Source: Candidatus Latescibacterota bacterium
GTDB lineage: Bacteria > Latescibacterota > UBA2968
Direction of reading: 5' to 3'
Assembly (NCBI GenBank): GCA_965207885.1
Contig: OZ242311.1
Span: 4,416,001-4,480,000, forward strand
Length of the DNA: 64,000 nt
Shown: positions 4,681-12,029 of the stretch, in pieces
Layout of the letters: each line of letters begins with the position of its first letter
How positions within the stretch are numbered: position 1 is the stretch's first letter
Made by a program: the position numbers and the translations under genes
The notes under the pieces: model-generated
Told to the model about the DNA's origin: nothing
Seen by the model: the letters and a program-made list of their open reading frames with translations, nothing else
Database searches by the model: none

Positions 4681-7446
4681 ATGGCAGACAAAACCCTGTA
4701 TTTATTAGACGGCATGGCACTGGTCTATCGAGGACATTTTGCGCTGATACGCAGTCCGAGGATGACGTCAAAAGGACTGAACACCTCGTCGTTATTCGTT
4801 TTTGCCAATACCCTATTGGATATTTTGGGCAACACAAAGCCCTCGCATTTGGCCGTAGTCTTCGACACGCCAGAGCCGACGTTTCGGGACGAGATATACA
4901 AAGAATACAAGGCACAACGGGAAAAAATGCCCGAAGACATAAGTGGCGCGCTGCCCTACATCGACCAAATGTGTGAAGCGTTCAACGTGCCCGTCATCCG
5001 CAAACCGGGTTATGAAGCCGACGACGTAATCGGCACACTGGCAAAAGAGGCTGAAAAATTCGGGTTTACAACATATATGGTAACCCCCGATAAAGACTAC
5101 GCACAACTCGTCTCAAACAAAACATTCATCAGCAAACCCGGACGCACGGGCGACGGCGCTGAGATCCTGGGCGTTCCAGAGATACTGGAACAATGGGAAA
5201 TTGAGCGCGTAGATCAGGTAATCGACATGCTGGGGCTAATGGGCGATTCGAGTGATAATGTGCCGGGCGTACCGGGCATAGGGCCAAAAACTGCACAAAA
5301 ATTAATCGCGCAGTACGACAGTGTGGAGGGATTGCTCGATCACGTCGATGAATTGAAAGGCAAACAAAAAGAAAATGTAGAGACATATAGAGAACAGGCA
5401 TTGTTATCAAAGGAACTGGTCACCATCCACCTCAACGTACCGTTGGACTTTGGGCTGAATGATCTCGCAGTGAAAGAACGAGACGAACAAAAATTGAAAA
5501 CCCTGTTCGCAGAATTGGAATTCAGCACACTGGGCAAACGGCTATTTGGAAATGATTTTAATATAGATCAGCAACAAATCTCGCTCTTCGGCGATGAAAC
5601 AGCGCTGGAAGGCGTATCAGCACACAAAACCATAGCGGATGTCGAACACACATATCACCTCGTGGATACCCCGGAAAAGCGCGCAGCATTGATCGAAAAA
5701 TTGGCACAGCAAAAGGCGTTTTGTTTTGATACAGAAACAACGGGACTAAACCCGAGAACGTGTGAAATGCTCGGTATCGCCTTTTCATTTCAACCGCACA
5801 CGGGATATTACGTACCAATGCCAGAAGACCCGGATAAAAATAAGGCCGTATTGGAAGAATTCCGCGGAATTTTGGAAAATCCGGACACCGAGAAAATCGG
5901 ACACAATCTCAAATTTGACCTCGCCGTATTATTGTGGCAAGGCATCAGAGTTCAGGGACTGGCTTTTGATACCATGCTCGCCGCTTATGTGACCGCACCC
6001 GAAATGCGTCGCGGCATGGATGCTCTATCGCTGGCATTATTGGGTTATGAACCCATTAAAATTGAGTCTTTAATCGGCGAAAAAGAAAAGGGCAAAGAAC
6101 AAAAAACCCTGCGCGAAGTCCCCCTGGACAAAGTAGCAGAATACGCAGCCGAAGATGCGGACATCACCTTGCAACTGTCCGAAGCTCTACGCCCCAAAAT
6201 CAAAGAAATGGGACAAACGCGCGTATTTGAAGACATAGAATGCCCGCTGGTATCTGTACTGGCGCAAATGGAATACGAAGGCATTCGCATGGAAGCATCT
6301 GTAATCGAAGCACTTTCGGAAGACCTGCAGGATGAATTAGTCGCCATCCGACAGCGCATTTACGACCTGGCTGGTGAAACATTTAATTTAAACTCCCCCA
6401 AGCAATTGGGCGATATCCTATTTGAAAAATTGAAACTCGATCCCAATGCGCGGCGCACAGCTAAGACAAAGCAATATCAAACAGGGGAATCAATTTTGCA
6501 GCGGTTGGCTTATAAACACGAAATAGTAGAACAAATTTTGGAATATCGAACATATTCAAAACTGAAATCCACCTATCTGGATATGTTGCCGGGCGCGGTA
6601 TTTAAGAGTACCGGACACATCCACACGCACTACGAGCAGGCCGTCACTGCCACCGGACGGTTGCAATCGCACGGACCAAATCTGCAAAATATTCCCATTC
6701 GCACGGAAAAGGGGCGCGAAATTCGCAAAGCCTTTGTACCTCGCAATGAAAATTACACCCTCTTGTCAGCAGACTATTCGCAGATAGAATTGCGCGTAGC
6801 GGCTGAACTGAGTCGCGATGAGGAGATGCACAGAGCATTTCGGGAAGGGCTGGATATCCATGCGGCAACCGCAATGAAAATTTACGGATTGGACGAACGC
6901 GATGTAACCGACGACATGCGCCGGCAGGCAAAAACTGTAAACTTTGGCATTATTTATGGAATTTCTGCCTTTGGCCTGGCGCAACGCCTGAATATTCCGA
7001 GATTTGAAGCCGGTAATTTAATCGAGCAATATTTTGAGCAATTTCCCGGCGCAAAAAAGTACATGGATGACACCATTGACTTTGCGCGAGAACACGGATA
7101 TGTGGAAACCATGACGGGACGCAGGCGATATCTGCGGGATATCCACTCGCGCAATGCCACCACGCGCAAAAGTGCCGAGCGCAACGCAATCAACTCGCGG
7201 ATTCAGGGCACAGCGGCCGACATGATTAAAATTGCGATGCGCCGCGTCCAGGATGCCTTGTTTGAACGGGACTTAAAAACGCGCATGCTGCTACAAGTAC
7301 ACGACGAACTCGTCTTTGACATGCACAAAGACGAAGCCGATATCGCGATGCCCCTAATCGAAGACGCCATGAAGAATGCCCTGCCAATGTCCGTGCCAAT
7401 TGTCGTGGAAATGGGCATGGGAAATACCTGGCTGGAAGCGCATTAA
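4681..7446 (+). CDS. polA: DNA polymerase I
   Basis: 5'-3' exo (YEADD, GDSSDNVPGVPGIG), 3'-5' exo (FDTETTG), pol motifs (DYSQIELR, KTVNFGIIYG, QVHDEL). Confidence 0.99.
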   Translation: MADKTLYLLDGMALVYRGHFALIRSPRMTSKGLNTSSLFVFANTLLDILGNTKPSHLAVVFDTPEPTFRDEIYKEYKAQREKMPEDISGALPYIDQMCEAFNVPVIRKPGYEADDVIGTLAKEAEKFGFTTYMVTPDKDYAQLVSNKTFISKPGRTGDGAEILGVPEILEQWEIERVDQVIDMLGLMGDSSDNVPGVPGIGPKTAQKLIAQYDSVEGLLDHVDELKGKQKENVETYREQALLSKELVTIHLNVPLDFGLNDLAVKERDEQKLKTLFAELEFSTLGKRLFGNDFNIDQQQISLFGDETALEGVSAHKTIADVEHTYHLVDTPEKRAALIEKLAQQKAFCFDTETTGLNPRTCEMLGIAFSFQPHTGYYVPMPEDPDKNKAVLEEFRGILENPDTEKIGHNLKFDLAVLLWQGIRVQGLAFDTMLAAYVTAPEMRRGMDALSLALLGYEPIKIESLIGEKEKGKEQKTLREVPLDKVAEYAAEDADITLQLSEALRPKIKEMGQTRVFEDIECPLVSVLAQMEYEGIRMEASVIEALSEDLQDELVAIRQRIYDLAGETFNLNSPKQLGDILFEKLKLDPNARRTAKTKQYQTGESILQRLAYKHEIVEQILEYRTYSKLKSTYLDMLPGAVFKSTGHIHTHYEQAVTATGRLQSHGPNLQNIPIRTEKGREIRKAFVPRNENYTLLSADYSQIELRVAAELSRDEEMHRAFREGLDIHAATAMKIYGLDERDVTDDMRRQAKTVNFGIIYGISAFGLAQRLNIPRFEAGNLIEQYFEQFPGAKKYMDDTIDFAREHGYVETMTGRRRYLRDIHSRNATTRKSAERNAINSRIQGTAADMIKIAMRRVQDALFERDLKTRMLLQVHDELVFDMHKDEADIAMPLIEDAMKNALPMSVPIVVEMGMGNTWLEAH

Positions 7447-7460
7447 AAGATGGAAAACAC

Positions 7461-8030
7461 ATGTTCAACTGGCTCAAAAAACTATTCGCCCCTCCTGTCG
7501 AACACCTGCCGCAACTCGAAATGTTTCGCGACCACCTCAATAACCTGCCCGAAATTCAGCAAATTACCGGTTATGCCACACGTACCTATCGTTCGGGTGA
7601 CGAAGCCGCCTGGTGTCGCATCATGGAAGGCAATGTAGGCAGCAACTGGACAACGGAGAAATGCCGAGCACAATTGATTCGCGATCCCCGCTTCCAGACA
7701 GAGAACCTCTTTTTCATCACCCACAACGACGACCCTATAGCCAGTGCGTGTGCCTGGAAAACACCCGGCCAATCGCCGGAAACAGGTGAAGTTCACATGG
7801 TCGCCGCGCACGCAGACCACCGCGGCAAAGGACTCGGGCATTTGCTCAACGCCCTCGTCCTCCATCGCTTAAAAGATCTGGGCTATCAAAAAGCACATCT
7901 CAAAACCGATGACTGGCGCCTACCGGCTATCAAAACCTACCTCGACGCGGGCTTCCAGCCCCTCAACACCCACGAAAGCCACCCCGAACGCTGGGAAGCC
8001 ATCTTCGCCCAGCTAAAAATTAAAAAATAA
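7461..8030 (+). CDS. GNAT family N-acetyltransferase
   Basis: HRGKGLG acetyl-CoA motif; AIKTYLDAGF. Confidence 0.85.
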   Translation: MFNWLKKLFAPPVEHLPQLEMFRDHLNNLPEIQQITGYATRTYRSGDEAAWCRIMEGNVGSNWTTEKCRAQLIRDPRFQTENLFFITHNDDPIASACAWKTPGQSPETGEVHMVAAHADHRGKGLGHLLNALVLHRLKDLGYQKAHLKTDDWRLPAIKTYLDAGFQPLNTHESHPERWEAIFAQLKIKK

Positions 8031-8035
8031 CCTCC

Positions 8036-9034
8036 TCACCCCATCAACGCATTATACCCCATCCCCATCACCTCCTTGACGTGTTCCAGTGTGCGTTGCC
8101 CTTCAATACGCGCCCTCGAACCGCCCAGATTCAAAATATCGCGCACCAGATCGGACTGTTCTTCAAAACCCTTGCGACGTATCCGAAACGGCGTCATAAA
8201 ATCATTCAGCACATCTGCCAACGCGCCTTTACACGTCGTACAGCCAACCGAACCACTGCGGCAGTCCCTTGCCACCTGCTCGGCATTCTCTTCATCAAAC
8301 ACCTCTCGATAGTGAAATGCCGAACACACACCGGGATTTCCCGGATCAGTTGCCCGCACCCGCCCCGGATCGGTAACCATATTCATCACCTTTGCCCGCA
8401 CAGACGTTTCTCTATCCGACAAATCAATAGCATTGCCGTAGCTCTTCCCCATCTTACTCTGACCATCTGTGCCCTTCAAGCGCGTGCCATAAACGCCATC
8501 GGGAATGGGAAACACCTCGCCATAAATCCGATTAAATCGCGCAGCCACTTCCTGCGCCAGTTCAATATGGGGTCTTTGATCTGGCCCCACCGGCACATAT
8601 CGCGGACGAAAAAGCAAAATATCCGCCGCCTGAGACACCGGATATCCCACAAACCCGTAAGGCACCCGATTCCCCAACCCCATCTTACCCATCTCTTCCT
8701 TAACCGTTGGATTCCGCAACAAACGCGGCAACGTCACCAAATTGGAAAAAATCATGGTTAACTCTGCCAGTTGCGGCACCTGTGATTGCAAAAAACAAAC
8801 GCTTTTTTTGGGATCAAATCCCGCCGCCAGATAATCCAGCACCATTTCTCTGACGTGATGCTCCAGATCTTCTGTCCGATCCCGATGCGTCGTCAGCGCC
8901 TGATAATCGGCAATCATAAAAAAACACTGAAACTCATCCTGCATCTCAAACCGATTCTTCAACGACCCGACATAATGCCCCAAATGCATTTTACCCGTCG
9001 GGCGATCACCTGTTAAAACAATTGTGCGACTCAT
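8036..9034 (-). CDS. trpS: tryptophan--tRNA ligase (TGDRPTG type)
   Basis: TGDRPTGKMHLGH (HIGH), YPVSQAADIL, VPVGPDQ, KMGKS; ATG 9034 after AAGGA. Confidence 0.97.
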   Translation of the reverse strand: MSRTIVLTGDRPTGKMHLGHYVGSLKNRFEMQDEFQCFFMIADYQALTTHRDRTEDLEHHVREMVLDYLAAGFDPKKSVCFLQSQVPQLAELTMIFSNLVTLPRLLRNPTVKEEMGKMGLGNRVPYGFVGYPVSQAADILLFRPRYVPVGPDQRPHIELAQEVAARFNRIYGEVFPIPDGVYGTRLKGTDGQSKMGKSYGNAIDLSDRETSVRAKVMNMVTDPGRVRATDPGNPGVCSAFHYREVFDEENAEQVARDCRSGSVGCTTCKGALADVLNDFMTPFRIRRKGFEEQSDLVRDILNLGGSRARIEGQRTLEHVKEVMGMGYNALMG

Positions 9035-9225
9035 GTCTGTTCCTTTCTTTGAACTATTAAAAATCCATAATTTCCAAAAAAAAAGCGCGCCACCTTCCGG
9101 TAGCGCGCGGTGCAAGCAAACAAAGATCGCCAGATATCCGGTGGTGGACATACATCTCCCATTGCGCCTGTCCACCACCAGCGTCTGCCAACATTAAACA
9201 GCTCTGTCATCGCACTCAAAAACAT
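9031..9225 (-). CDS. Trp leader peptide 2 (RRWWW), stop overlaps trpS start (ATGA)
   Basis: Three consecutive TGG codons at 9180-9172 lying in the 5' arm of an 11-bp stem; AGGT 5 nt before ATG 9225 (alt. ATG 9210). Confidence 0.7.
   Translation of the reverse strand: MFLSAMTELFNVGRRWWWTGAMGDVCPPPDIWRSLFACTARYRKVARFFFGNYGFLIVQRKEQT
9076..9108 (-). terminator. attenuator terminator 2 of trpS leader
   Basis: GCGCGCTACC-GGAA-GGTGGCGCGC followed by T9 on - strand. Confidence 0.85.
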
Positions 9226-9239
9226 CGCATACCTACTAC

Positions 9240-9272
9240 AAAAAAAACCGCCGTCAAAAAGCCGACGGCGGT
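9240..9272 (-). terminator. attenuator terminator 1 of trpS leader
   Basis: ACCGCCGTC-8 nt-GACGGCGGT followed by T7 on - strand. Confidence 0.85.
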
Positions 9273-9303
9273 CAATTCAGAATTCTCAAATAAATACAAT
9301 CCG

Positions 9304-9414
9304 TCAGCAAACCCACACAGCGGCACGCCACCAACCACGGACGGTTTCAGACACACGGGGAGCCAGCACCCTATCGGGCGTCGCATCAGTCAAAATGTGA
9401 TCGCGCATAATCAT
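9304..9414 (-). CDS. Trp leader peptide 1 (36 aa, ...RGWWRAAVWVC)
   Basis: GGGAG 6 nt before ATG 9414; TGG TGG at 9333-9328 and TGG at 9315-9313; stop ~30 nt before terminator. Confidence 0.75.
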   Translation of the reverse strand: MIMRDHILTDATPDRVLAPRVSETVRGWWRAAVWVC

Positions 9415-9442
9415 AACAAACTCCCGTGAAATATCGCCAATG

Positions 9443-9471
9443 AAAATAACGACTTCCACACCTCGTGTCAA
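9443..9471 (-). promoter_or_regulatory. sigma70 promoter of trpS leader
   Basis: TTGACA-17 nt-TATTTT on - strand. Confidence 0.65.
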
Positions 9472-9488
9472 GCCGTTTGCTCTTCTTT
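9443..9488. repeat. direct repeat, left copy (partner 12937-12982)
   Basis: GTCAAGCCGTTTG(C/A)TCTTCTTT 21/22 identical at 9467-9488 and 12961-12982, extending degenerately through the promoter. Confidence 0.85.
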
Positions 9489-10952
9489 CCGCACAAACCG
9501 GAACGAGTACAGCTTTGCCGACCGCATCACGACGCGAAGCCGCAGCGGTCCTCGATCCGTGGGGATCCGGCGGCCAGCCCCCTGCCACGACACGCCTGCC
9601 TTGATTGCATTGGCGACAATCGTCTCGCACGTCTTCAGCGTGTAGCCTTCCACGGGGCGCCCCTCTTCGTCCTGCAGTTCGACCAGCAACCAGCCGCCCC
9701 CGCCACAATCCACATTCAATTCGAGCGCCTGGCCGTCGAACGCCAGCGGCGGTGTCACAAACTCTCCGCCAGAGAGAGACGCATCCGCCGAGATAAAACC
9801 ATCCCGCCTCAGGATCGCCCGGAACAGACCGGTGTTCCAACCGTCGCGCACCTCATCATTGTGCCGACTTCCCCTCCCCGAATAGTAGATCCACATCTCG
9901 GTCTCGGTAAGCACGGGCCAGACATTGGCCATCACCATACCACCCGATGGTCCCCCATCCAGCCCCCGGCGGATAAACGGCTCCCGGTCTCCCTGACGCG
10001 ACCATATGATCCCGTCACGGCTCGTGAGGAGCCGGACATCCATTGTGGCCGGGAAATCAGAGGCTTCCCAGTGGTAGTAAGCGGCGGGCATCATAAAGTA
10101 CGCATCATCCGCCTCGGGATGTTTGTAAACCGCGTTCGTGTAGTAGTCAACCTGCGGCCTGTCCATTGACCGGGGAGGCAGAGGGGCTTCCAGGTCCAGC
10201 GCATCTCCCTCCAGAACGATCAGCGTGGGCTGCGACCAGGTCTTAAAGTCGGGCGACGTGATCCGGCCAACGGACCGGTACCGCTTTCCGAGCTTCATTT
10301 CCGCCGCCTCGTCCCGTCGCTGGGTCTCGTGTACCCGCGTATAGCCGACGTAGAGGTCCAGGCTGTCATCCCAGAAAAAAACATTTTGAGTGTCGCACAT
10401 CTGGTTGGGCGGATTCGGCTGGCCCTCATCATACGTCCAATGGATCCCGTCGGGCGAATGCATGGCCCAAAGCCCCGGCAGAACACCGGCCTCGATCTCA
10501 TCATCCCTGGGATAGTACTTCGACCAGAGCCGGTAGCGCGAATCGGCGGGCGCGCGTTCGTCTATATAAACCGTCGCGCCCTGCATACTCTGACGCTCAT
10601 CCAGCGGGGCGACGATGTTGTTGGCGGTGCTACCCTGGAACGTGACGAGGTGCATCTCCGGCTTCTGCCAGGAGACCCCGTCTTCGGACTCCGCATAGCA
10701 GAGACGAACCGCCCCTTCCTGCGGACCTCCCGATTTCATCTGTGCGCCGTACCAGAGCCGGAAGTGCCGCTCCCCTTCCCGGATCACCGTGTTGTACGCC
10801 CCAATCCCGAGCTTCTCCCACGGCTTGTCCGCCCGGAGCACCGGCTCGGGGGACTGCAAAGGCGGATTCATACGGAGATTGACACCAGAGACTCGATCAA
10901 AGAAGCGCGCGTCAATGAAAAGCTGTTTCCGGCTCCCAACCTGGACGGCCAT
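9468..10952 (-). CDS. beta-propeller glycoside hydrolase-like protein (GH32/43/130-like fold) with C-terminal beta domain
   Basis: RKQLFID, CYAESEDGVSWQKP, SPDGIHW, SRDGIIW repeats, LRRDGF; ATG 10952 after AGGAAGGAG. Confidence 0.7.
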   Translation of the reverse strand: MAVQVGSRKQLFIDARFFDRVSGVNLRMNPPLQSPEPVLRADKPWEKLGIGAYNTVIREGERHFRLWYGAQMKSGGPQEGAVRLCYAESEDGVSWQKPEMHLVTFQGSTANNIVAPLDERQSMQGATVYIDERAPADSRYRLWSKYYPRDDEIEAGVLPGLWAMHSPDGIHWTYDEGQPNPPNQMCDTQNVFFWDDSLDLYVGYTRVHETQRRDEAAEMKLGKRYRSVGRITSPDFKTWSQPTLIVLEGDALDLEAPLPPRSMDRPQVDYYTNAVYKHPEADDAYFMMPAAYYHWEASDFPATMDVRLLTSRDGIIWSRQGDREPFIRRGLDGGPSGGMVMANVWPVLTETEMWIYYSGRGSRHNDEVRDGWNTGLFRAILRRDGFISADASLSGGEFVTPPLAFDGQALELNVDCGGGGWLLVELQDEEGRPVEGYTLKTCETIVANAIKAGVSWQGAGRRIPTDRGPLRLRVVMRSAKLYSFRFVRKEEQTA

Positions 10953-11016
10953 GAGATACTCCTTCCTATTGTCGATGCCAACTACAAAAAGTTTGCCTGA
11001 TCCATCCTGTACATCC

Positions 11017-11964
11017 CTACTCACACGCAAGAGCGGCCAACAAAGCTTTGATATACCCGACTGAGTAGGCGAGCGCATGGGTATTGCCAGCAGGCCCATC
11101 TCCTTCAAGCGTCGGATAGTGATCGGGATTCAGACAGCCGTCGTAACCCACCCGCTTCAGTTCGCGCAGGATCTTGAACATGTTCATGTCCCCATCGTCG
11201 AGCAGGACCTCTTCGAACGCACCGGCAGTTGCAAAGCTCGCCCGTACATTTCGAAAGTGAACCTCGAAGAGACGTCCCTTTCGCCCGTAGTTGTGAATCT
11301 CGTCCAGGACGAGTGGGAGTCCTCCAGCCTCCGCGCGTGTCCCACAACAGTAGAGGTAACCGACACACGGGTTCGGAAAGGCATCGATCACCCGGTGGAA
11401 TCCCAGCCCGCCGAAGAGCGCATCCTGCGTCGGCGGATCGGAGGGATGCATCATCAGTCTGACGCCTGCGGCTTCCGCGACGGGTACGAGCCGTTCGTAA
11501 GCCGCACAGACACGTCCCCACCGCTGCTCCCGCACTGCTATGGCCGGCGGCTCGTCCCCTTCTGCGAGTGACAGACTATCCCCTCGAGCCAGGTATCCGC
11601 CACGGTGCGATGCCCGATAGTGTCCAATCATCCAGGGATCTGTGGAATAGTCGAAGTGCACCCGTCCGAGAGGATAGCCTGCTTCGCCAAGGACCTGGAC
11701 GGACTCGCACGCGACATCGAGCTCTTCCTCAGCCCCATCCTCTTCGTCCATGAACCGCTTCGATAGACCGGGCAAACTGATGCGATTCACCTGCAGACCC
11801 CAGGAATGAACCTGTTTCTTCATTTTCAGTGCCTCGTCCAGATCGAAAACGCCACGGTCATCGGTCGGCAATGGCAGGGCATCAACGCAATCGACGCCCA
11901 GCTGGGTTAGCTGGCGCAACGTCGCGTCGGACGGGTCTTGACACCAGGCAGCTACTTTGATCAT
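11017..11964 (-). CDS. uxuA: mannonate dehydratase family protein
   Basis: HPSDPP, VHFRNV, DGDMNM, PDHYP, AYSVGYIKALL. Confidence 0.8.
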   Translation of the reverse strand: MIKVAAWCQDPSDATLRQLTQLGVDCVDALPLPTDDRGVFDLDEALKMKKQVHSWGLQVNRISLPGLSKRFMDEEDGAEEELDVACESVQVLGEAGYPLGRVHFDYSTDPWMIGHYRASHRGGYLARGDSLSLAEGDEPPAIAVREQRWGRVCAAYERLVPVAEAAGVRLMMHPSDPPTQDALFGGLGFHRVIDAFPNPCVGYLYCCGTRAEAGGLPLVLDEIHNYGRKGRLFEVHFRNVRASFATAGAFEEVLLDDGDMNMFKILRELKRVGYDGCLNPDHYPTLEGDGPAGNTHALAYSVGYIKALLAALACE

Positions 11965-12029
11965 GGGGAACCTCCAGGAAAAGAAGATGAACCAGGAACA
12001 GCGAGGAAAAAACGAATGTGGATGAAGCG

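Follow-up and report, generated by a model that had tools for sequence, protein, structure and literature searches.

The window analysed here is the whole stretch of 64,000 nucleotides (nt) from a Candidatus Latescibacterota bacterium (contig OZ242311.1, positions 4,416,001 to 4,480,000), whose genome of 6.2 Mb forms a single contig. On its minus strand it carries a gene for a tryptophanyl-tRNA synthetase (TrpRS), trpS, and our subject is the leader in front of this gene. Behind a promoter-like site, the leader holds two units in series, called module 1 and module 2 below. Both have a short open reading frame (ORF) with a ribosome-binding site, adjacent Trp codons and an intrinsic terminator, and in both an antiterminator excludes the terminator, with support that is thermodynamic and comparative. 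A first-pass annotation had proposed that these units are two non-homologous, ribosome-mediated Trp attenuators. Its positions for the promoter, the leaders, their pairing segments and the terminators, all on the minus strand, proved right to the base, and the proposal itself gained support from 24 of 37 related loci and from folds with a masked ribosome. The elements are listed in the order of transcription.

9443..9471, minus strand: promoter-like site TTGACA-17-TATTTT serving the whole leader (TTGACA 9471-9466, TATTTT 9448-9443)
9304..9414, minus strand: leader ORF 1, 36 codons plus UGA (stop at 9306-9304), peptide ending RGWWRAAVWVC
9323..9406, minus strand: long-range helix of the ORF 1 start with the Trp codons, from RNAalifold
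9261..9308, minus strand: module 1 antiterminator, GCUGACGG 9308-9301 with CCGUCGGC 9268-9261, from masked folds and pair counts
9240..9273, minus strand: intrinsic terminator 1, 12-pair stem 9273-9246, T run to 9240
9031..9225, minus strand: leader ORF 2, 64 codons, ATG at 9225, RRWWW as codons 14-18, three UGG codons at 9180-9172
9138..9181, minus strand: module 2 hairpin 1:2, CUGGUGGUGGACA 9181-9169 with UGUCCACCACCGG 9150-9138, 13 bp
9090..9147, minus strand: module 2 antiterminator, from duplex searches and masked folds
9076..9108, minus strand: intrinsic terminator 2, stem 9108-9085 (10 pairs), GGAA loop, T9 at 9084-9076
8036..9034, minus strand: auxiliary tryptophanyl-tRNA synthetase gene (trpS), 332 amino acids, ATG at 9034, TIGR00233 match

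Structure of the two modules

Two sets of sequences were compared. The first set comprises the 600 nt upstream of the auxiliary trpS at 23 loci, 21 of them in genomes of the genus and one in each of two other genera. A further 14 loci, found by searching with a covariance model of module 2, bring the number of related loci to 37. All folds are thermodynamic, and those with a masked ribosome were made for four loci per module. Overall, the 413-nt leader folds with a z score of -4.13, and none of 100 shuffles folded as well. The promoter-like site is the sole sigma-70-like match on the minus strand upstream of trpS within 7000-12000, and its hexamers and spacing are identical in 18 of the 22 two-module loci (600 nt examined). 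This genome has 39,828 ATG-initiated ORFs with a length of 20-70 codons; two adjacent Trp residues (WW) occur in 717 (1.8%) of them and three (WWW) in 28 (0.07%).

In module 1, the Shine-Dalgarno sequence GGGAG (9425-9421) lies 6 nt before the ATG at 9414. The adjacent Trp codons are codons 28-29 (9333-9328), and a third Trp codon follows at 9315-9313. The arms of terminator 1 are ACCGCCGTC (9272-9264) and GACGGCGGT (9255-9247), and 98.8% of the terminator cells are paired over 22 sequences. CCGUCGGC is the end of the terminator 5' arm plus the loop, and GCUGACGG encloses the UGA stop codon, which lies 9 nt earlier in L007, L009 and L020. At least 21 of the 22 sequences preserve the eight core pairs of the antiterminator; in L013, the most divergent of them, the pairing persists but is shifted (GGCCGAC with GUCGGCC). 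The first-pass annotation had described three mutually exclusive pairings for this module. The terminator and the 2:3 pairing, the latter as GCUGACGG/CCGUCGGC, were retained; the 1:2 pairing of CCGTC (9344-9340) with GACGG (9305-9301) is not conserved in L010, L011, L023 and L024, and was dropped from the model. A long-range helix is also present, in which codons 3-6 (9406-9397) pair with the Trp codons and the bases that follow them (9331-9323). Its cells are 96.8% paired, and two of its pairs are changed on both sides (6 cells); at a guess, this helix is possibly a pausing or synchronising hairpin.

The same annotation had suggested folding the leader with and without ribosome footprints. 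When the ribosome was masked on the second UGG, the module 1 antiterminator was the minimum-energy fold of partial transcripts at all four loci tested (-14.3 kcal/mol in L001). When the ribosome was placed on the leader 1 stop codon, the antiterminator was blocked and terminator 1 formed, again at four of four loci. With the ribosome on the UGG codons of module 2 and the terminator 3' arm incomplete, the antiterminator of that module was the minimum-energy fold at three of four loci. The energies of successive partial transcripts were -16.9 and then -19.6 kcal/mol in L001, -21.9 and then -24.3 in L011, and -20.5 and then -25.2 in L013. In the absence of a ribosome, L001 and L013 formed hairpin 1:2 and terminator 2, and L011 did so only from a length of 152 nt onwards.

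The UGG codons of module 2 form the 5' arm of hairpin 1:2, which has an energy of -24.1 kcal/mol and 95% paired cells over 23 sequences. The Trp codons had already been placed in an 11-bp stem of GGTGGTGGACA (9179-9169) with TGTCCACCACC (9150-9140), and this placement stands. The antiterminator proposed with it, CCACC.CCGG against CCGG..GGUGG of the terminator loop and 3' arm, turned out to be too small, with only -11.1 kcal/mol on its own, and had to be extended by UGGCG/CGCUA. The full set of pairs is CCACC 9147-9143 with GGUGG 9094-9090, CCGG 9141-9138 with CCGG 9100-9097, and UGGCG 9132-9128 with CGCUA 9105-9101. CCGG (9141-9138) and UGGCG (9132-9128) thereby pair with CGCUACCGG, the top of the terminator 2 5' arm, and CCACC/GGUGG pairs afterwards. 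With the added pairing, the module 2 antiterminator can therefore form before the 3' arm of the terminator exists. Its cells are 97.5% paired over 23 sequences, compared with 29-56% for slid partners. Terminator 2 itself has an energy of -21.7 kcal/mol and compensatory changes in its lower stem.

Leader ORF 2 starts 8 nt downstream of AGG, with a clearer GGAGG or AGGAG in L010, L011 and L013. It passes through terminator 2, and its TGA overlaps the trpS ATG at 9034 (likewise in L023). The reading frame over the terminator and the position of the stop vary among loci, and the ORF is conserved only up to about 9136. The end of this conserved part is the antiterminator strand, which reads in frame as V-C-P-P-P-D (9153-9136), or V-[C/R]-P-P-P-D over the 37 sequences. 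The Val codon is GTN, with all four third letters in use, in 35 of 37 sequences. The first Pro codon is CCA in 27, CCG in 9 and CCT in 1; the second position has CCA in 34, CCT in 2 and CAA in 1; the third Pro codon is CCG in 37/37; and Asp is encoded by GAT in 34/37. Across the same 37 sequences we found no C-to-U change that would preserve G-U pairing and alter the amino acid, and lineages differ by 3 nt only in the loop that separates WW from PPP. The variation at synonymous sites means that the antiterminator strand is translated, and the peptide is under selection at the codon level.

As a separate observation, ORF 2 shares the frame of trpS at 8 of the 23 loci, with no stop codon between them, and reading on would give an N-terminally extended TrpRS.

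Conservation and distribution of the leader

Module 2 was found at all 23 loci of the first set and module 1 at 22, with the start codons kept to the same extent; the exception, L012, has module 2 alone, directly behind an upstream gene. A leader 1 ORF containing WW is present at 22/23 loci, and WW(W) occurs in leader 2 wherever module 2 does. An alignment of the upstream regions had been suggested as a check, and its outcome was favourable: neither module alignment shows any change in its TGGTGG columns, and the two Trp leaders and their helices are kept in the related loci. The Shine-Dalgarno sequences, the ATG codons and the in-frame WW persist amid otherwise divergent sequences. The ORF of 546 amino acids upstream of the leader in the window precedes only 16 of the 23 loci, and module 1 is still present without it in L010, L011, L013, L023 and L024, which means that terminator 1 does not simply belong to that gene.

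The module 2 covariance model matched in 36 of 151 genomes of the phylum, with one match in the genome of the window itself. By family, matches were found in 26 of 29 genomes (f1), 8 of 19 (f2) and 1 of 2 (f4), and in none of the 64 genomes of f3. Both modules stand in tandem at 24 of the 37 loci, namely throughout the genus (21/21 genomes) and in three other genera; 13 loci have module 2 alone. Locus L085 has both modules, and its leader 1 can be recognised as a relative of the one in the window. In another family, L086 has a promoter-like site, a W-Q-W leader ORF and a terminator like terminator 1 of L013, followed by module 2. In f2 (loci L088-L096), module 2 lies between a housekeeping-type trpS and a second, divergent trpS that is 35-43% identical to the window copy; the leader there reads ..RWW.., eight residues, PPPD, and stops before, in or beyond the terminator. 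From this distribution, module 2 looks like the older unit of the two, and module 1 with its own promoter appears to go with a trpS copy that is no longer behind the housekeeping trpS.

Within f2, the second trpS copy is absent from L092 and L094, which retain the attenuator; the terminator of L094 is degraded.

The first-pass annotation had also held that the modules are not a recent duplication. When modules 1 and 2 were compared, similarity was limited to matches of 7-8 nt, such as the T run. As nothing else is shared, we rejected duplication as the origin of the pair.

A segment of about 65-75 nt lies between terminator 1 and leader 2 in L006, L007, L017 and L020. Letters like this insert also follow terminator 2 in one metatranscriptome contig (contig ends 9077, 9232). 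The 77-nt insert of the L007-type loci has no copy in the genome of the window at E <= 1e-3, and we therefore make no claim of a mobile repeat.

Proposed mechanism and competing explanations

We consider it likely that one promoter drives a leader of about 410 nt in which two independent ribosome-mediated attenuators in series read charged tRNA-Trp and gate an auxiliary TrpRS. The sign of regulation, the role of the PPP stretch and the benefit of having two modules are what we infer, as follows. In module 1, when charged tRNA-Trp is scarce, the ribosome would stall at UGG UGG (9333-9328), GCUGACGG would stay uncovered and pair with the terminator 1 5' arm, and the polymerase would continue. 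When it is plentiful, the ribosome would reach the UGA within GCUGACGG and cover the strand, and terminator 1 would form. In module 2, the antiterminator strand would be the 3' arm of hairpin 1:2 together with the next 10 nt. With a ribosome held on the UGG codons by scarcity, this strand would pair with the top of the terminator 2 5' arm and later with GGUGG of the 3' arm. With plentiful charged tRNA-Trp, the ribosome would sit on the slow polyproline stretch and cover the strand while terminator 2 is being made, and a stop codon would be unneeded.

The two modules differ in what holds the non-starved ribosome. In module 1, a ribosome at the stop codon masks the antiterminator strand; this is not so in module 2, where the stop ranges from before the terminator to inside trpS. 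PPP, PPD and PPG are strong ribosome stalling motifs. It is probable, judging from the conserved codons, that PPP-D holds a non-starved ribosome on the antiterminator strand and stands in for the stop codon. The accessible part of one study describes polyproline pauses as favouring termination at downstream intrinsic terminators (PMC5021804).

Because the window has no promoter-like site between the modules, module 2 can be reached only through terminator 1. A full-length mRNA would need two read-throughs; the leak would therefore be two small numbers multiplied together, and depletion of Trp-tRNA would evoke a steeper response. It is reasonable to see in this arrangement an AND-type double filter. 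A more specific version is tentative: a stop-less module 2, with the selected pausing peptide V-[C/R]-P-P-P-D at the place of the stop codon, might integrate Trp-tRNA charging, which would set read-through, with elongation dependent on proline and EF-P, which would set termination. Placed behind an unrelated Trp attenuator, it could form a two-stage ultrasensitive switch for a spare TrpRS.

Several observations count against two attenuators in series, in addition to those taken up with the alternatives below. The module 1 antiterminator has no double-sided changes in fixed columns and hence no covariation. That of module 2 has one compensatory pair (GC to AU in L013), which was equalled in 57 of 500 shuffles. 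Covariation is thin overall, as most of the sequences are close kin and differ little. Two folds also do not fit: in L001, module 1 adopts the antiterminator at 179 nt even with no ribosome, and in partial transcripts of L012 the module 2 antiterminator is not the minimum-energy fold. At full length the RNA favours the terminator state in both modules (-31.3 kcal/mol for module 2 with a stalled ribosome), and antitermination must therefore be kinetic, as in classical attenuators. Logan contigs from four metatranscriptome runs, 90-99% alike, cover 9077-9232 and 9277-9488, but as assembled contigs they are mute on ends, strand and level, and may come from carried-over DNA. Finally, the regulated gene has no KMGKS loop in 11 of the 21 genomes of the genus.

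The arrangement of the leader bears on a different explanation, in which module 2 alone regulates trpS, and module 1 is either a relic or the separate gene of a small leader RNA or peptide, perhaps trans-acting, whose leak feeds module 2. Module 2 stands alone at 13/37 loci and looks like the older and more widespread element, which would fit such a division. So would the promoter-like match found between the modules at 4 of the 22 two-module loci (L008, L010, L013 and L015), and the tolerance for insertions there: the gap from the end of terminator 1 to the WWW codons, usually 59 nt, reaches 85-283 nt at some loci, which amounts to insertions of 26-224 nt. On the other hand, the window and 17 more two-module loci (18/22) have no sigma-70-like site between the modules, and 13/22 keep the gap at only 59 nt. 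Module 1 also has the full set of attenuator parts together with Trp codons, and, regardless of the gene in front of it, its place is always immediately before module 2 and trpS. We regard this explanation as unlikely.

The open end of leader ORF 2 raises the question of sign. No stop codon precedes terminator 2 at any of the 23 first-set loci, and a tightly coupled ribosome could therefore suppress termination, opposite to the sign proposed above. Module 2 would then have its terminator suppressed by a trailing ribosome, with stalling at UGG or PPP leading to termination, or it would report on proline or EF-P status. The conserved PPP-D motif would fit this, and ribosomes that follow closely are described, in the part of PMC5021804 available, as preventing terminator hairpins. 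However, the helix between the UGG arm and its complement is conserved, although a pure coupling device could do without it, and the frame over the terminator varies between loci. The ORF stops 32-38 nt ahead of the T run in L088 and L094 and within the terminator loop in L089, so that translation through terminator 2 is not conserved. A module of opposite sign would also cancel module 1. Overall, an opposite or different sign for module 2 seems to us quite improbable.

A third explanation treats the ORFs as incidental and the leader as a conserved RNA bound by a protein or by tRNA-Trp, in the manner of TRAP or of a T-box. In principle, tRNA-Trp could base-pair with UGG-rich segments through its CCA anticodon or its 3' end, and the loop and top of terminator 2 are unusually conserved. 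Against this, a search of 8900-9600 gave no Rfam match to a T-box or riboswitch up to E = 10, and every match returned was below threshold. Among the cis-regulatory families only Trp_leader (RF00513) reached that E value, with a full-length but weak match over module 1 (9241-9339, minus strand; 18.8 bits, E = 0.43), below the gathering threshold of 41 bits. A TRAP-type leader was rejected, as the nine (G/U)AG triplets include none chained at a spacing of 2-3 nt (longest chain 1). The synonymous-site variation is that of a translated region, and the start codons and Shine-Dalgarno sites are kept. We give this explanation very little credence. Serial attenuation accounts better than any of the three alternatives for the helices that are conserved, for the start codons and for the selection on codons.

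The regulated synthetase, related systems and implications

The product of the window trpS matches the equivalog model for tryptophan--tRNA ligase, TIGR00233, with 272.2 bits against a cut-off of 176.75. The solved chains nearest to it are 2a4m ('Tryptophanyl-tRNA synthetase II'), followed by 1yi8 and 2g36, and its KMGKS is at residue 194. A second trpS lies elsewhere in the same genome; it is of the housekeeping type, 46% identical to the window copy, and has no leader. The housekeeping type was found in 41 of 41 searched genomes of the order, and the window type is limited to one family. By this distribution, the window trpS is therefore to be classed as an auxiliary TrpRS paralog.

In 11 of the 21 genomes of the genus (L014-L024), about 84-87 residues are missing from within the auxiliary TrpRS through an in-frame deletion, which takes out the KMGKS loop and a four-Cys segment and leaves the ORF and both leaders intact. 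Three distinct boundaries, those of a 248-amino-acid form, of L023 and of L024, mean at least three separate deletion events.

The four Cys lie between TrpRS residues about 236 and 270. Their pattern, C-x20-C-x6-C-x2-C, is placed at residues about 236-266 (window 8236-8329, minus strand) and is absent from 2a4m in the alignment. An Fe-S cluster has been described in one bacterial TrpRS. The segment may be a candidate site for a metal or an Fe-S cluster.

Three further ORFs surround the locus:

4681-7446, plus strand: DNA polymerase I-like ORF, 921 amino acids
7461-8030, plus strand: ORF of 189 amino acids, convergent with trpS
9468-11108, minus strand: ORF of 546 amino acids upstream of the leader, no NCBIfam match

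Outside the window, the region upstream of trpE in the same genome (C1:1305760-1306010, minus strand) has a promoter-like TTGACA and a leader ORF of 33-34 codons. This ORF is rich in Phe, Trp and Tyr (..YFWYFW..YYY..), and a hairpin with a T run lies directly before trpE. To judge by this sequence, the trp operon seems to have one aromatic attenuator of its own, and attenuation would thus be in use in this lineage.

To our knowledge, leader-peptide attenuation is a textbook mechanism described from few phyla and nearly always as a single unit. Sensors in tandem do occur in other classes: tandem T-boxes precede trp operons, and riboswitches for the same ligand can be paired. The leader described here resembles them in having two serial terminator-based sensors, with an expected lower leak and sharper response. 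They sense a ligand or a tRNA through RNA, whereas the sensor in the window would be a translating ribosome. The pyrBI leader senses UTP by polymerase pausing and ribosome coupling. The leader in the window differs from it in that its Trp codons lie within a hairpin and an antiterminator is the alternative fold; the likeness is a leader ORF that is still open at the terminator and overlaps the attenuator, as given in the accessible part of PMC3641672, which also mentions the metE tandem riboswitch.

Among systems with leader peptides, Streptomyces trpS/trpS2 and leuS come close, for which classical attenuators were predicted in 2005 (Seliverstov et al., PMC1262725). In the accessible part of that paper, the trpS/trpS2 leaders share with the window a short ORF with adjacent Trp codons, a terminator and an exclusive antiterminator, and the regulated synthetase can be a second copy. 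By contrast, the leader in the window has two serial units, and its module 2 lacks a conserved stop and has V-[C/R]-PPP-D on the antiterminator strand. The mgtCBR leader of Salmonella (Lee and Groisman 2012, PMC3641672) likewise combines two short ORFs, both of which control elongation into the coding region and one of which uses proline codons. As far as the available part of that report goes, one ORF responds to ATP and the other to Pro-tRNA, their effects are additive, and intrinsic terminators are lacking. The leaders in the window are both Trp-coded, each with a canonical terminator, and must act multiplicatively. Two serial leader peptides that respond to one signal are also found before erm genes, but in the partial accounts consulted these act by translational attenuation through an antibiotic-bound ribosome, without amino-acid codons or transcription terminators.

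The first-pass annotation knew of no described serial pair of leader-peptide attenuators for the same amino acid. We too found none in the literature, in which subscription journals were thinly covered, which falls short of proving that none has been published. Attenuators with two leader ORFs in tandem are known in general, the mgtCBR pair with its two signals being the case in point (PMC3641672, seen in part). Under the same partial journal coverage, we found no leader peptides described in Latescibacterota. As of 2010, the accessible part of one account has leader peptides reported only from Proteobacteria and Actinobacteria, together with new cases in Firmicutes (PMC2965389). What seems new here is a conserved serial pair for the same amino acid and a stop-less module 2, leader-peptide attenuation itself being known.

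Relatives of the window locus occur in sponge and coral libraries, and the finding extends attenuation to an uncultured phylum associated with sponges and corals. The serial pair for one amino acid would be a natural test of whether stacked ribosome sensors give the lower leak and sharper response that have been claimed for tandem riboswitches. The case also suggests an attenuator design in which a polyproline pause would stand in place of the stop codon. As for the gene under control, a catalytic loop lost in frame at least three times under tight Trp control hints at a role for the auxiliary TrpRS beyond plain aminoacylation.

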